Shown here piece by piece: positions 10,386 to 15,304 of a stretch of 64,000 nucleotides of DNA (positions within the stretch are counted from its first letter, which is position 1; every line of letters starts with the position of its first letter). The position numbers and the translations under genes were made by a program. Origin of the DNA: Limisphaerales bacterium. Lineage in GTDB: Bacteria > Verrucomicrobiota > Verrucomicrobiia > Limisphaerales > SIBE01. The stretch spans positions 1 through 64,000 of the forward strand of contig JBGAIN010000008.1 in the NCBI GenBank assembly GCA_044225505.1, written 5' to 3'. The notes under the pieces were generated by a model. It saw nothing but the letters and a program-made list of their open reading frames with translations, was not told the DNA's origin and did no database searches.

Positions 10386-10685
10386 CTAGAGGTTAATTTC
10401 GGAAGGGAACCATTGATTCGAGATTTGGAGTACCCCCGCGCTGATTTCGGGCCCGTGCAGGTTCGTCAGCATCAGGTCGCCGGCAAAACAAAGGACGACG
10501 ATGAACCCTGTGCCCCATGCGACTTTGGGGAAGAACTGATTCAATTGCTCGAAGAGTCCAGGCAGCTCCGTGCGAGATTCACGCTGCAGTTGCTGAAGGA
10601 TTTTCTGCTCCAAATTCCCGGAGACCGCGGCTGGCGGCTGGGCGCGCGCGGCCGCGAAGAGTTTATTAAGTTTCTGATCGTCCAT
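10386..10685 (-). CDS. Putative single-TM anti-sigma factor
   Basis: Overlaps the 3' end of the ECF gene; short N-terminal domain (LNKLFAAAR) followed by one hydrophobic helix. Confidence 0.65.
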   Translation of the reverse strand: MDDQKLNKLFAAARAQPPAAVSGNLEQKILQQLQRESRTELPGLFEQLNQFFPKVAWGTGFIVVLCFAGDLMLTNLHGPEISAGVLQISNQWFPSEINL

Positions 10686-11247
10686 GGGTTTGCTGTTCCA
10701 AGGCAAGAAGCGCCTTTTTGAGTTTACTCCGAGCGCGCATGGCCCGGACGCGGACGGCGACGCTCGAAGATCCGGTTAGTGCACAAATCTCCTTGATGCT
10801 GCGGCCCTCCAGTTCCTGAAGCGTGATCACGAGACGTTCTTGTGGAGACAACCGACCCAGGGCGTAGTCCAGCAACTCGCGCGCGCCGCTCGCGGCGAGC
10901 TCAGATCCAGAACCGTCCGGGCGCAGCCAGTCGAGCGCGTCCTCGCCCAATTCTGGGAACCCGACTTCGTGACGCTGCCGCTTGGCGCGGCGCAAGTGGT
11001 CCAAGGCGACATGAACGGCGATGCGGCTGATCCAATGTTGCAGGGGCGCCCGGCCGTCAAAGCGATCGAGCGCCCGCCAGACTTTGACGAACGTTTCCTG
11101 AGCAAGGTCTTCGAGGCGGTGCGCGTCTTTCTCATACCGGGAGAGCAAAGCGACGACAAACGATTGGTGCTGCCGGACGATTTCAGCGAACTCGTCCGGC
11201 GCACCGTTTCGAATACGTTCCACCAATTCGGCATCACTGCCTTTCAT
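10666..11247 (-). CDS. ECF (sigma-70 group 4) RNA polymerase sigma factor
   Basis: SDAELV, EDLAQETFVKVWRALDRF, WISRIA (region 2); LSPQERLVITLQELEGRSIKEI...VRVRAMRARSKL (region 4). Confidence 0.92.
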   Translation of the reverse strand: MKGSDAELVERIRNGAPDEFAEIVRQHQSFVVALLSRYEKDAHRLEDLAQETFVKVWRALDRFDGRAPLQHWISRIAVHVALDHLRRAKRQRHEVGFPELGEDALDWLRPDGSGSELAASGARELLDYALGRLSPQERLVITLQELEGRSIKEICALTGSSSVAVRVRAMRARSKLKKALLALEQQTHGRSET

Positions 11248-11322: not shown

Positions 11323-11796
11323 TTAGTCAGCCGGCCAATCGCCAATTTGGCGGATTACATGGTCGATCCAGTCATCCAGGCATTGCAGAAGGCGCTGCAC
11401 TTCTTCGCGTTGGTCAGGCGTCAGGATCGGGCTGATCTTTTGATAGAGATGCCATCGTTCCACGGCAATGTCCGCTTCCGCCGCGGCGACCTCCGCAGAC
11501 GCTGCGCGGACCGAGGTTTCTGTTGCTTCGGGACTTTGGATCGTTTCCCGAAGATCGATTCGAGTGTCGTGTAATCGGTCGAGCAGTTTGATCAAGATCT
11601 CTTTGTCGGCGGTGATTACAGCCTTGATCCCGTTGATCTGCGAGGGCGTGAGCCCCAGATGTTCTTTGGCACGTTGCACGAGAAAGCCACGGAGAGGGCG
11701 TTTGCCAGGGTCTGCAGCCTGAACGTGAACGGTGAATGCGGCTCCCACAGTTAGCGCGAAAGCAAGCATGTAACTGACAGATTTTAGTTTCTTCAT
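11323..11796 (-). CDS. Spy/CpxP family periplasmic chaperone
   Basis: Signal peptide ending VQA; LGLTPSQ and ILTPDQ LTXXQ motifs. Confidence 0.8.
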   Translation of the reverse strand: MKKLKSVSYMLAFALTVGAAFTVHVQAADPGKRPLRGFLVQRAKEHLGLTPSQINGIKAVITADKEILIKLLDRLHDTRIDLRETIQSPEATETSVRAASAEVAAAEADIAVERWHLYQKISPILTPDQREEVQRLLQCLDDWIDHVIRQIGDWPAD

Positions 11797-11837: not shown

Positions 11838-11977
11838 GGTCTGAAGCGAGGTGCTGGCAGGAATCAAAAACGTAGTCAACGGCAGTCCAGGACCTCGCTA
11901 CGCAGTTGCGTCCTACTGGGGGATCAGCGTATTCTTTGCGGACCGAGTATTCGGATTCCGTTGGCATGAGGTATTCT

Positions 11978-12859
11978 ATGAAGAGGATTGTTCTTGCGGT
12001 CGTTGCGGCGCTGCTCTGCCTCCAAGTTTGCTTTGCGGCCAGTGCATTCACGGGGACTTTCAAGAGCAAGGAGGGAACTATCGTCTTAAATGAGGTTGCC
12101 CCTGGCAAATTCACCGGCCAGTTCGTCGCGAACGGCCAGACCCTGGCGTTTACGGCCCAGGAAAAAGGAGGGGCGTTGAGCGGTGCCTTGAACTTGGCGG
12201 ACGAAAATCTTGACTTCCGTATGACTTTGAAGGGGCGCCAGTTGACTCTGGTCTTGGAAGATGAATCGAGTGTGTTCACAAAGGACGAGAGCCCGTCGAG
12301 CTCTGCCTCCACCGCGCCCGAGGCTCGCAGCAGCGATGTCAAAGCGACTTCGACATCACGCGCCGAGAAGGCGCACACCCTTCGCGTCAACGGCGTCGAC
12401 ATTGACGATAAGACCGTGCGGAAGTTCGAGCGTGAGAATCGGGTCAAGTTGCCTCAAGGCGACTTTTGGTATGACAAGGGCTCGGGCGCATGGGGCGTGA
12501 GTGGCGGCCCCACGATAGGTTTCACTGCCCCAGGGATAGTGTTGGGAGGACCTCTGGCGGCGGACGCTTCTCGCGGAGATACCGGAGTCTTTATAAACAA
12601 TCGCGAGTTGCCTCAGCAAGATGTTGCGGGTCTGCAACAACTGGGCGTGCCCGTCCAACGAGGCCGCTGGTGGGTTGATAATCGCGGGAATTTCGGAGTT
12701 GAGGGCAACCCCGCCACCGTTGGTAATCTGTTCCAGTTCAGCCAGAGCAAAGGGGGTGCCTACCAACGGGCGACCGCGGGTGGTTATATCGGCGGCGACG
12801 GCCGCACGAGTTATTTCTTCGATCCCAAGTCCGGTAGCAGCGTGATGGTGGGGAACTGA
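11978..12859 (+). CDS. Secreted hypothetical protein; C-terminal domain resembles the plant XLG/EDR4 domain
   Basis: Signal peptide MKRIVLAVVAALLCLQVCFA; Ser/Thr linker; VNG...GDFWYD..SGAWG..GGP...ASRGDTGVFINNREL motif series. Confidence 0.75.
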   Translation: MKRIVLAVVAALLCLQVCFAASAFTGTFKSKEGTIVLNEVAPGKFTGQFVANGQTLAFTAQEKGGALSGALNLADENLDFRMTLKGRQLTLVLEDESSVFTKDESPSSSASTAPEARSSDVKATSTSRAEKAHTLRVNGVDIDDKTVRKFERENRVKLPQGDFWYDKGSGAWGVSGGPTIGFTAPGIVLGGPLAADASRGDTGVFINNRELPQQDVAGLQQLGVPVQRGRWWVDNRGNFGVEGNPATVGNLFQFSQSKGGAYQRATAGGYIGGDGRTSYFFDPKSGSSVMVGN

Positions 12860-12979: not shown

Positions 12980-15304
12980 ATGAACCTTTACAGACGATTG
13001 CTTAACTTGGGTGCCGTTTGCTTACCGATAGCGATCCAGTGCTTGGGCGCAGACGCCGAAATTCGAGTGGCTAACTCTGGATCGAGCCCATCGATCCTCG
13101 TTCAGGGTGCCGAAGATGACGAATGGAGATTTCAGGTTTCGGACGATCTGATCCTTTGGACCAACGCCCCGGCCTACGGAACGGTGTTTTCGTCCAAGAC
13201 CCCGACTCAATCATTGAGCTTTTCAACCGAGGCGAAGCCATTCCAGTTCCTGCGCGCCGTCAAAGCGAAAGGATTGTTCGACGTCAATTTGCTCCGGACA
13301 GTCAGCCTTACCTTTTCCAACGCAAATTGGGCCACCCTTTTGGCAAATGGTCGCACGACTGGCTCCAATGTCCCGGCGGTGCTTCAGCTGGACAATGGGG
13401 TGTCAGTGACCAATGTCGGGGCGCGATATAAAGGGAATACTTCTTACACTCAAGGCGGAGCGAAGAAGTCGGTCAACCTGGACATTAACTGGACCGATCC
13501 CGATGCGCGGGTGTTAGGGTATCGTGCGGTCAATCTCAACAATGCGGCGGGTGACGAGACGATCATGAGAGAGCCGCTGTATTTCGAGGTGATGCGCGAA
13601 TACGCGCCCTCCCCGCACGGATCGTTAGCCCGGTTGATGATCAACGGCGAGTATTGGGGCGTTTACTCAATGGTCGACCAGATCAACAACGACCTGGTCG
13701 ATCAATGGTTTCCCAGTCATGAGGGTGACCGATGGCGCGCGCCCAACACCGGTGGGGGAACGGCAGGCGGCACTGCGACTGGGACGGGCGGGCCAGGTAG
13801 AGGGATTCCAGGGGGAGGTGGTGGTGTTCCGGGCGGCGGCGGTGGCTTTGCCAGCGCGGCTTCGGCATTCAGTTACTTGGGAGCGTCGGTGGCGAGTTAC
13901 ACGAATAACTACGAACTGAAGTCGGATAACTCCACAAATGCGTGGGAACACTTGGTGCATGCAATTGACGTTCTGAATAACACCGCGACCACGGAGCTCA
14001 GGGATAAAGTCGAGGACGTATTCGCGGTGGATCGTTGGCTGTGGTTCCTCGCCGTTGAGAACGTATTTGTCGATGACGACAGTTATTGGAACAAAGGGGC
14101 GGACTACGCTTTCTACTACGAACCGGAAACGGGCCGCATTCACCCGGTTGAGCACGATGGGAACGAGTCATTCACCGCCGCCGCGGGCGAGAACTACAGC
14201 CTGTCACCGGTCGAAGGGGCCACCGGCACGAATCGGCCGTTGCTCTACAAGTTCTTGCCGATCACCGAACTCCGGCAGCGTTATCTCGCTCATATGCGGA
14301 CCGTTCTCGAAGAAAAGTTTCAACCCGCCCAGCTGACGCCGATCATCGACGGTTTCCATCATTTATCGGTGGCGGCGATTGTAGCGGACCCAAAGAAAAG
14401 CTACACGATGGCGAGCTATACGAACGACCTTGTGGCTCTGAAAACTTATGTGACGAACCGTTACAACTTTCTCATCAGCCACGCTGAACTGACCCCCAAA
14501 CCGCCAACAATCACCGCTGTGCATGGGCCGGCAACGAATCCTGCTCCCTCCGACGTTCCAACAATTACCGCTGAGGTGAAGGCGAATGACGGCGCTGGCT
14601 TGGACTCGGTTTGGCTATACTGGCGCGAAAAGAACTACGGCCGGTTTGATCGGGCGCAGATGTGGGACGATGGCGCTCACGGCGACGGCCTGGCCAATGA
14701 TGGGATTTACGGAGGAACCACAGCCGCGTTCCCGGGCGGACACAAGGTGCACTATTACGTGGAAGCGCGCGCCGCCAACGCGGCCAAGGCAGCTGCCTTC
14801 TCGCCAGCGCGGGCCGAGGAGGAGACGTTCAGCTATGAAGTCAGCCTGGCTTACGCCAGCAGTTCGCCCGTGGTGATCAACGAAATCTTGGCACAAAATG
14901 GTAAGACGCTGGCCGATTCTCAGGGAGAGTTTGATGACTGGATTGAGCTGCGGAACCTCACCGCCGCGGACATCGACTTGACGGGCTACTACCTGTCGGA
15001 TGACCCAGACAAACCGCGAAAGTGGCAGTTCCCAGAGGGGACTCGAATTTCAGCCAATAGTTACCTGCTCGTTTGGGCTGACGAAGACGTAGCGGATACC
15101 CCTGGGCTGCACGCTAACTTCAAGTTGTCGGCTGATGGAGAGCAAGTTCTGTTGGTCAGTCCCGATAGCACAGCCAACATCGTTCTGGACTCCGTGACGT
15201 TTGGCGTGCAAACAACGGATCGGTCGTACGGCCGGCTGCCTTCGGACACGAGCCGCTTCGGGACCATGTTGCCGACGCCACGGACCGCCAACGTCGAGCC
15301 TTAG
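12980..15304 (+). CDS. CotH kinase family protein with a DDG..D..A.DG.Y motif and C-terminal lamin-tail (LTD) domain
   Basis: RYKGNTS, NLNN, MREPL, INGEYWGVY, DDDSY, HDGNESF; MWDDGAHGDGLANDGIY; VVINEILAQN...DWIELRN...DLTGYYLSD...NFKLS...TPRTAN. Confidence 0.9.
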   Translation: MNLYRRLLNLGAVCLPIAIQCLGADAEIRVANSGSSPSILVQGAEDDEWRFQVSDDLILWTNAPAYGTVFSSKTPTQSLSFSTEAKPFQFLRAVKAKGLFDVNLLRTVSLTFSNANWATLLANGRTTGSNVPAVLQLDNGVSVTNVGARYKGNTSYTQGGAKKSVNLDINWTDPDARVLGYRAVNLNNAAGDETIMREPLYFEVMREYAPSPHGSLARLMINGEYWGVYSMVDQINNDLVDQWFPSHEGDRWRAPNTGGGTAGGTATGTGGPGRGIPGGGGGVPGGGGGFASAASAFSYLGASVASYTNNYELKSDNSTNAWEHLVHAIDVLNNTATTELRDKVEDVFAVDRWLWFLAVENVFVDDDSYWNKGADYAFYYEPETGRIHPVEHDGNESFTAAAGENYSLSPVEGATGTNRPLLYKFLPITELRQRYLAHMRTVLEEKFQPAQLTPIIDGFHHLSVAAIVADPKKSYTMASYTNDLVALKTYVTNRYNFLISHAELTPKPPTITAVHGPATNPAPSDVPTITAEVKANDGAGLDSVWLYWREKNYGRFDRAQMWDDGAHGDGLANDGIYGGTTAAFPGGHKVHYYVEARAANAAKAAAFSPARAEEETFSYEVSLAYASSSPVVINEILAQNGKTLADSQGEFDDWIELRNLTAADIDLTGYYLSDDPDKPRKWQFPEGTRISANSYLLVWADEDVADTPGLHANFKLSADGEQVLLVSPDSTANIVLDSVTFGVQTTDRSYGRLPSDTSRFGTMLPTPRTANVEP

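Follow-up and report, generated by a model that had tools for sequence, protein, structure and literature searches.

P0001, a protein predicted to be secreted and encoded on the plus strand of a 64,000-nucleotide stretch of DNA from a Limisphaerales bacterium (contig JBGAIN010000008.1, positions 1 to 64,000; hereafter the window), contains a module that, on the evidence of sequence comparison, is a true homologue of the stretch of plant extra-large G proteins (XLGs) that follows the Cys-rich region and precedes the G-alpha domain. The module belongs to a large, unnamed and mostly bacterial family; P0001 as a whole is not an XLG, with which it has this one module in common. The best overall explanation of these observations, which we consider rather likely to be correct, is that P0001 is an exported, bona fide member of the family, that its XLG-type module plays a non-catalytic binding or adaptor role and that bacteria are the reservoir of the domain. 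A preliminary description made from the sequence alone had quoted a peptide encoded at 12380..12733 and noted its resemblance to XLG. The peptide was found in the plus-strand open reading frame (ORF) 11906/11978..12859, where the reported stretch reads ...LRVNGVDIDDKTVRKFERENRVKLPQGDFWYDKGSGAWGVSGGPTIGF...LGGPLAADASRGDTGVFINNRELPQQDVAGLQQLGVPVQRGRWWVDNRGNFGVEGNPATVGNLF and corresponds to residues L135-F252, numbered from the ATG at 11978, and the resemblance to XLG was borne out by the comparisons described below.

A BLASTP alignment of P0001 with the XLG protein P0212, evaluated with composition-based statistics, extends over 107 residues with 38% identity (E 1e-19). The matching segment of P0212, residues 431-533, is located just N-terminal of its G-alpha domain (residues 572-955). 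A comparison with hhalign between the family profile A1 and the XLG protein P0214 covered 124 columns, with a probability of 98.4 and an E value of 4.3e-15, and included both halves of the module as well as its initial (F)VN strand. A second profile, A2, assembled from P0001 together with 28 of its bacterial relatives and a single fungal protein, was searched against 5.8 billion sequences for proteins longer than 513 residues; three of the 8,000 scored candidates passed, in a search in which long proteins crowd out relatives, and all three were plant proteins (E 1.3e-26, 7.7e-25 and 5.6e-24). Two of them are Aristolochia isoforms named 'extra-large guanine nucleotide-binding protein 1-like' and the third is an unnamed Asparagus protein, and each contains the Pfam G-alpha domain.

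The relationship was also recovered from the plant side. With the XLG segment of P0214 as the query, 880 proteins were retrieved, the best 120 of which are all XLG-type: the Pfam G-alpha domain is present in 118 of these, and the remaining two look like truncated XLGs. The core hidden Markov model (HMM) of the family scores all 120 plant segments, and an HMM built exclusively from bacterial sequences (98 rows) assigns at least 51.8 bits to every one of them (median 95.35), while none of 600 shuffled copies scored above 4.6 bits and none of 120 reversed ones above 4.3 bits. Since both sets of controls fall far below the real segments, the similarity reflects common descent and not composition.

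The order of the motifs VNG, G.YWYD..SG.WG, GG...AS.G.T, (F)IN.RE and W.D..G...EG is the same in P0001 and in XLG1-3. In contrast to the XLGs, P0001 has no Cys-rich region, no nuclear localization signal and no G-alpha domain (PF00503; no Pfam match), and possesses an N-terminal β-domain and a Gly-rich tail of its own; while XLGs are cytoplasmic or nuclear, P0001 would be exported by means of its signal peptide. In the literature considered here, XLGs are called unique to plants and their N-terminus is described solely in terms of a nuclear localization signal, a Cys-rich motif and a nuclear export signal, or as 'uncharacterized' (PMC13185490, PMC8584482, bioRxiv 10.1101/2025.06.18.660248). 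P0212 and P0214 have the G-alpha domain as their sole Pfam match, and this part of XLG is therefore covered by no Pfam model. In the full-text literature searched, which leaves most subscription journals outside its coverage, no description of the module or of a prokaryotic counterpart of the XLG N-terminus was found. The C-terminal parts of EDR4-like proteins may carry the same ordered motifs. The zinc ribbon found at the N-terminus of EDR4-like/DUF3133 proteins (PF11331, zinc_ribbon_12) had no Pfam match in P0001 at E ≤ 1. The DUF3133 proteins are treated in PMC6428781 as having no known function.

The module consists of two tandem copies, derived by duplication, of one unit of about 46 residues, as indicated by the alignment of its two halves with each other (hhalign, 98 sequences: probability 98.65, E 4.7e-16, 45 columns). 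In the models, each unit is composed of two short strands, a helix and a hairpin rich in aromatic residues and Gly, whose consensus is G.YWYD..SGAWG..GGP in unit 1 and GR.W.D..GN.G.EG.P in unit 2. At 21 positions, one and the same residue is found in 80% or more of the sequences in every one of three sets (208 bacterial, 119 plant and 15 fungal); these positions are referred to as universal: N138, G161, W164, Y165, D166, G170, W172, G173 and G176 in unit 1, G190, G191, A197, S198, G200 and T202 in the connector, and N207, R209, L219, W232, G237 and G243 in unit 2. P0001 carries all 21 universal residues, and all of the ordered motifs N(G), G.(Y/F)WYD..G.WG..G, GG...AS.G.T, N.R and W.D..G...G are present in it. 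Gly or an aromatic residue occupies 13 of the 21 positions, and none of the 21 is a His, Cys, Lys or Glu. Some relatives contain the pieces in higher number: one or two additional single units of about 50 residues occur in P0068 and P0090, and two whole modules in P0109, from Myxococcota, which shows that the unit behaves as a repeat.

No Pfam, NCBIfam, PADLOC or PHROG model for the module was found in library scans of P0001, nor did any Pfam model cover the core in any of the 150 family members scanned. Of 399 candidates from a word-indexed search with residues 125-293, 66 proved to be relatives at E ≤ 0.001; these are without exception unnamed or 'hypothetical', none has a Pfam domain, and those with a named source are from metagenome-assembled genomes of Verrucomicrobiota and Planctomycetes. 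The extent of the family became apparent with profile A1, built from 16 domain-level sequences and searched against 1.84 billion representatives: 1,915 clusters at 50% identity matched at E ≤ 0.001, 1,427 of them at E ≤ 1e-10 and 627 at E ≤ 1e-30, the best 150 matches being 112-445 residues long. The number of relatives and clusters, together with the 21 universal positions, goes well beyond a chance resemblance. A collection with one genome per species (185,579 species) gave 395 pattern matches, of which 390 were confirmed. Eighty of these 390 loci were kept and provided the phylum labels: Gemmatimonadota (37), Acidobacteriota (9), Pseudomonadota (7), Planctomycetota (6), Bacteroidota (6) and eight further phyla (13), with no phylum named for two loci. 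Thirteen named bacterial phyla are thus represented among the loci kept, mostly by environmental metagenome-assembled genomes.

The family also has a fungal branch. P0197, from the Mortierellaceae Linnemannia and Podila, is a protein of about 228 residues that combines a WW domain with the module (E 1.5e-49 in the A1 search), and genes of its cluster lie on fungal contigs of up to 4.3 Mb. These proteins contain the same module as P0001 and are much nearer to the bacterial consensus than the plant proteins are (149 versus about 89 bits with the core HMM); in place of the signal peptide and β-domain of P0001 they have an N-terminal WW domain, and they are presumably intracellular. The presence of the module in Mortierellaceae means that the domain is not plant-specific, as it had initially been regarded, and it is moreover widespread in bacteria.

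Structure prediction with a Foldseek search had been put forward in the preliminary description as a check. The 128-residue core was modelled by AlphaFold2 from 99 sequences with very high confidence (predicted local distance difference test score, pLDDT, of 95.8 and predicted template modelling score, pTM, of 0.86). Model confidence is lower for the Gly-rich tail (pLDDT 67-70). The Foldseek search of the core model against the PDB returned no match (best E 2.8). A second look at the core model (VIA) gave 0/67 matches, no match was found among the viral predicted structures of BFVD (best E 0.2) and a comparison of the profile with PDB sequences produced no match at E ≤ 10. With a confident model and no structural relative detected, the module is a candidate for a new fold. 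For the β-β-α-β-β unit, an origin of the cradle-loop or swapped-hairpin (AbrB-like) type was considered, as was a PDZ-like character of the 'VNG' motif; no result supports either idea.

The origin of the module was addressed with two unrooted trees, one of 92 rows obtained by a quick method (14 plant rows) and one of 39 rows obtained by a careful method (seven plant rows), with three fungal rows and with the bacteria sampled from the best-scoring 150 of the 1,915 representatives. In both trees the plants form one tight clade and the fungi another, on long stems among the bacterial rows, with support values of 99 and 100 in the Shimodaira-Hasegawa-like approximate likelihood-ratio test (SH-aLRT) for the 92-row tree and of 100/100 for the 39-row tree. 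The stem of the plant clade measures 1.15-1.5 changes per site and is not adjacent to the clade of the window protein. Plants and fungi were joined in none of 200 bootstrap trees; in the approximately unbiased (AU) test on the 39 rows, a single plant-plus-fungus clade was not rejected (log-likelihood difference 9.45, p 0.302). The sister of the plants is P0167 (support 97/98), whose cluster includes a protein from a Nitrospira genome, and the P0167 lineage may be taken as a lead for the donor lineage. As a separate observation, both P0167 and the plant proteins read SGLWG where SGAWG is found in the hairpin consensus.

Transfer of the domain to eukaryotes from a bacterial reservoir is a plausible and the more economical reading of these data: the bacteria would constitute the older and larger reservoir, from which the plant and fungal copies would be derived. 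The suggestion made at the outset of a bacterial origin or a transfer event is therefore rendered plausible by the breadth of the family in bacteria and held back by the unrooted tree and the AU p value of 0.302. A further-reaching scenario, which we put forward tentatively and regard as possible at best, is that the module represents an undescribed fold that was at first a ligand-binding domain of the bacterial envelope, was captured by eukaryotes and, in the land-plant ancestor, became joined to a zinc finger and a G-alpha domain, giving rise to XLG.

The export of P0001 and its N-terminal β-domain bear on where the module would act. The predicted export signal of P0001 is of the ordinary Sec type; no lipobox is present in it, and both of the Cys residues of P0001 lie within it, leaving the mature part upstream of the module free of Cys. 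An N-terminal hydrophobic segment was detected by a crude hydropathy test in 116 of 156 family representatives. The β-domain (residues 24-102) is probably calycin- or lipocalin-like. Residues 46-98 of P0001 give a sub-threshold match to the Pfam model DUF5640 (12.6 bits versus a cut-off of 28.5), which is the sole Pfam match of the protein at E ≤ 1, and a weak streptavidin match to this domain was obtained in NCBIfam. The relative P0107 scores above the Pfam threshold of DUF5640 (37.6 bits), and DUF5640 was matched at E ≤ 0.001 in four of 150 family members. With an iteratively built HMM, the β-domain was detected again in 25 of 149 representatives, as well as in 50 of the close relatives P0002-P0062. 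The likeness to DUF5640 and to lipocalin-like small β-domains is weak and concerns this accessory domain of P0001, not the reported module.

In the explanation that we favour, P0001 would be a Sec-exported protein of the envelope or of the extracellular space with a core of about 125 residues. The module would serve as a non-catalytic binding or adaptor domain, working outside the cytoplasm together with the small calycin-like β-domain and recognizing, by means of its aromatic hairpins and of conserved Asp, Ser, Thr, Asn and Arg residues, a conserved partner that may be a polar small ligand, a headgroup or a protein. The binding or adaptor role is proposed because the universal positions are rich in Gly and aromatic residues and devoid of His, Cys, Lys and Glu, because units are multiplied in some proteins and because the fusion partners found in the family, namely WW, GYF_2, SHOCT, TPR, DUF5640 and lipocalin-like domains, are interaction or ligand-binding domains. 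Several points weigh against parts of this explanation. About one quarter of the representatives have no obvious export signal, and some have N-terminal domains of cytoplasmic appearance. The unrooted trees, with their sample of the best 150 bacterial representatives, and the AU p value of 0.302 make the proposed direction of transfer tentative. The genomic neighbourhood is uninformative, none of it being shared across phyla and the same-genus copy lying in a different context. Finally, we infer the binding role from the partner domains and from the kind of residues conserved, and D166, S198, T202, N207 and R209 could equally be catalytic.

The module might instead be an enzyme whose substrate, such as a glycan or a peptide, is located in the envelope or outside the cell. 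We regard this alternative as unlikely; in its favour are the very strong conservation of these five residues across three kingdoms, the invariance of the AS.G.T connector loop and the failure to match any known fold, which leaves room for an unknown catalytic fold. It is difficult to reconcile with the lack of a universal His, Cys, Lys or Glu, with the structural Gly or aromatic nature of most conserved positions and with the multiplication of modules and single units in some proteins; the fusion partners are interaction domains, and no enzyme or substrate-pathway gene is conserved in the neighbourhood. The opposite polarity of descent, in which the domain arose in plants or fungi and later spread to bacteria, is a less probable option still. 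The trees are unrooted and the sister relationship of P0167 and the plants (97/98) can be read in either direction, which leaves room for it, but bacterial diversity is by far the larger (1,915 clusters; 13 phyla represented in the 80 retained loci), and bacteria form the backbone of the tree, in which plants and fungi make up one tight clade each.

The preliminary description had also raised the possibility of host mimicry. That P0001 imitates a plant protein, or that a plant was the recent source of its gene, and that it interferes with plant immune signalling would agree with its signal peptide and with the action of XLG proteins in plant immunity, as stated in two reviews (PMC13185490, PMC8584482), yet it is very improbable: the organism and its gene are found in metagenomes, the runs with the gene coming from activated sludge, wastewater or a bioreactor according to their labels, the signal for export is of ordinary Sec type, the family extends over 13 bacterial phyla in mostly environmental metagenome-assembled genomes, identity to XLG is just 38%, the plant clade sits on its stem of 1.15-1.5 changes per site away from the clade of the window protein, and the G+C content of the gene is in line with that of its surroundings. 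Convergence, or a composition bias of hairpins rich in Gly and aromatic residues, can hardly be upheld as the cause of the resemblance to XLG. The module is certainly Gly-rich, with Gly at nine of the 21 universal positions, and the YWYD..SG.WG hairpin resembles motifs of other, unrelated repeat types, cell-wall-binding and YD repeats among them. This account is nevertheless already contradicted by the shuffled and reversed plant segments (at most 4.6 bits versus a median of 95); the BLASTP E value stands at 1e-19 even with composition-based statistics, the alignment is collinear across both units and the connector, and P0001 matches no Pfam repeat family at E ≤ 1. Models of cell-wall-binding or YD-type repeats were matched neither by P0001 (Pfam, E ≤ 1) nor by the 150 members scanned (E ≤ 0.001).

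The features of the gene and of its product are listed in the table. The order of signal peptide, small β-domain and Ser/Thr linker ahead of the module, as given in the preliminary description, can be read directly in the sequence. Translation is likely to start at the ATG at 11978, which is preceded at 5-6 nucleotides by a possible ribosome-binding site (GAGG); an alternative ATG is found at 11966. The Gly-rich tail is kept within one subfamily and replaced elsewhere by other tails, as seen in the alignment, and lies outside the similarity to plants, the plant alignments stopping near residue 258. The stem-loop that follows the gene is one of three terminator-like consensus sites found, versus 1.8 expected from shuffles.

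Features of the P0001 gene and its predicted product, with coordinates in the window.
Feature	Coordinates	Strand	Residues and remarks
Whole gene (P0001)	11978..12859	+	Predicted secreted protein of 293 residues; coordinates include the stop codon
Signal peptide	11978..12046	+	Residues 1-23, MKRIVLAVVAALLCLQVCFAASA; A-S-A|F site of signal-peptidase-I type; read from sequence
N-terminal β-domain	12047..12283	+	Residues 24-102, about 80 residues
Ser/Thr/Ala-rich linker	12284..12379	+	Residues 103-134; from sequence
Repeat unit 1 of the XLG-like module	12380..12520	+	Residues 135-181; VNG..., helix, G.FWYD..SGAWG..GGP hairpin
Connector between units	12521..12586	+	Residues 182-203; universally conserved GG.L...AS.G.T motif
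Repeat unit 2	12587..12721	+	Residues 204-248; VFINNRE..., helix, GRWWVD.RGNFGVEGNP
Gly-rich C-terminal tail	12752..12856	+	Residues 259-293, 35 residues, GGAYQRATAGGYIGGDGRTSYFFDPKSGSSVMVGN
Weak terminator-like stem-loop	12860..12886	+	Directly 3' of the stop codon; consensus match only

In its own genome (9.04 Mb, 342 contigs) the gene is present in a single copy. A sample of 300 further genomes from this phylum yielded no copy and, among 40 relatives examined, it occurs in one, a genome of the same genus; none of the genes within 4-5 kb on either side of it in the window recurs around this same-genus copy (13 kb fetched; tblastx, 1e-8). The nearest relatives, at 70-76% identity, bear three different phylum labels: Verrucomicrobiota (P0003/L082), Acidobacteria (L001) and Actinomycetota (L002). 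The mixed labels, the absence from 300 genomes and the non-syntenic copy in the congener suggest either lateral movement or a binning error. In three metatranscriptome runs from two studies, contigs of 166-311 nucleotides fall inside the gene with at least 99% identity; these do not demonstrate transcription, because the runs were found using this gene and carry-over of DNA is possible.

The window gene has on one side a divergent pair, which encodes an LTXXQ/Spy-like protein and an extracytoplasmic function (ECF) sigma factor, and on the other side a gene for a protein with CotH and Lamin Tail domains. The ECF sigma factor and the signal-peptide protein, at 10666-11247 (-) and 11323-11796 (-), are transcribed divergently from the P0001 gene, and the signal-peptide protein has a weak Metal_resist/LTXXQ (Spy/CpxP-like) similarity that remains below the cut-off (26.4 bits); the two look like an envelope-stress pair. 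The product of the downstream gene, at 12980-15304 (+), is 774 residues long and contains a CotH kinase domain (E 3.1e-37) as well as a Lamin Tail Domain (E 1.1e-15); its N-terminus is signal-like, and it has an insert rich in Gly. We take the P0001 gene to be monocistronic, with no functional partner likely to be encoded nearby. The survey of neighbours across the family, in which the target gene was called in 79 of the 80 loci, found no neighbour common to the 79 loci beyond synteny within Gemmatimonadales, to which a HEAT-repeat protein (21 of 79 loci), YceI (11 of 79) and a TonB-dependent receptor (9 of 79) belong. An S9 peptidase (8 of 79) and an ECF sigma factor (4 of 79) were considered as linked genes and rejected, being scattered and common in these phyla.

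XLG proteins are central to immune and developmental signalling in plants. The comparisons described here delimit, in the N-terminal half of these proteins, a stretch of about 125 residues as a discrete module that is duplicated internally and is represented by about 1,900 clusters in bacteria and by a branch in fungi. For mutagenesis, they provide the limits of the domain and its 21 universal residues. The small secreted bacterial proteins that carry it are suited to structure determination and ligand screening and, if the module was indeed captured from bacteria, such soluble proteins would be a tractable stand-in for finding ligands of the XLG N-terminus. The family offers a concrete hypothesis for the assembly of XLG, which may have proceeded through domain fusion, possibly after gene transfer.
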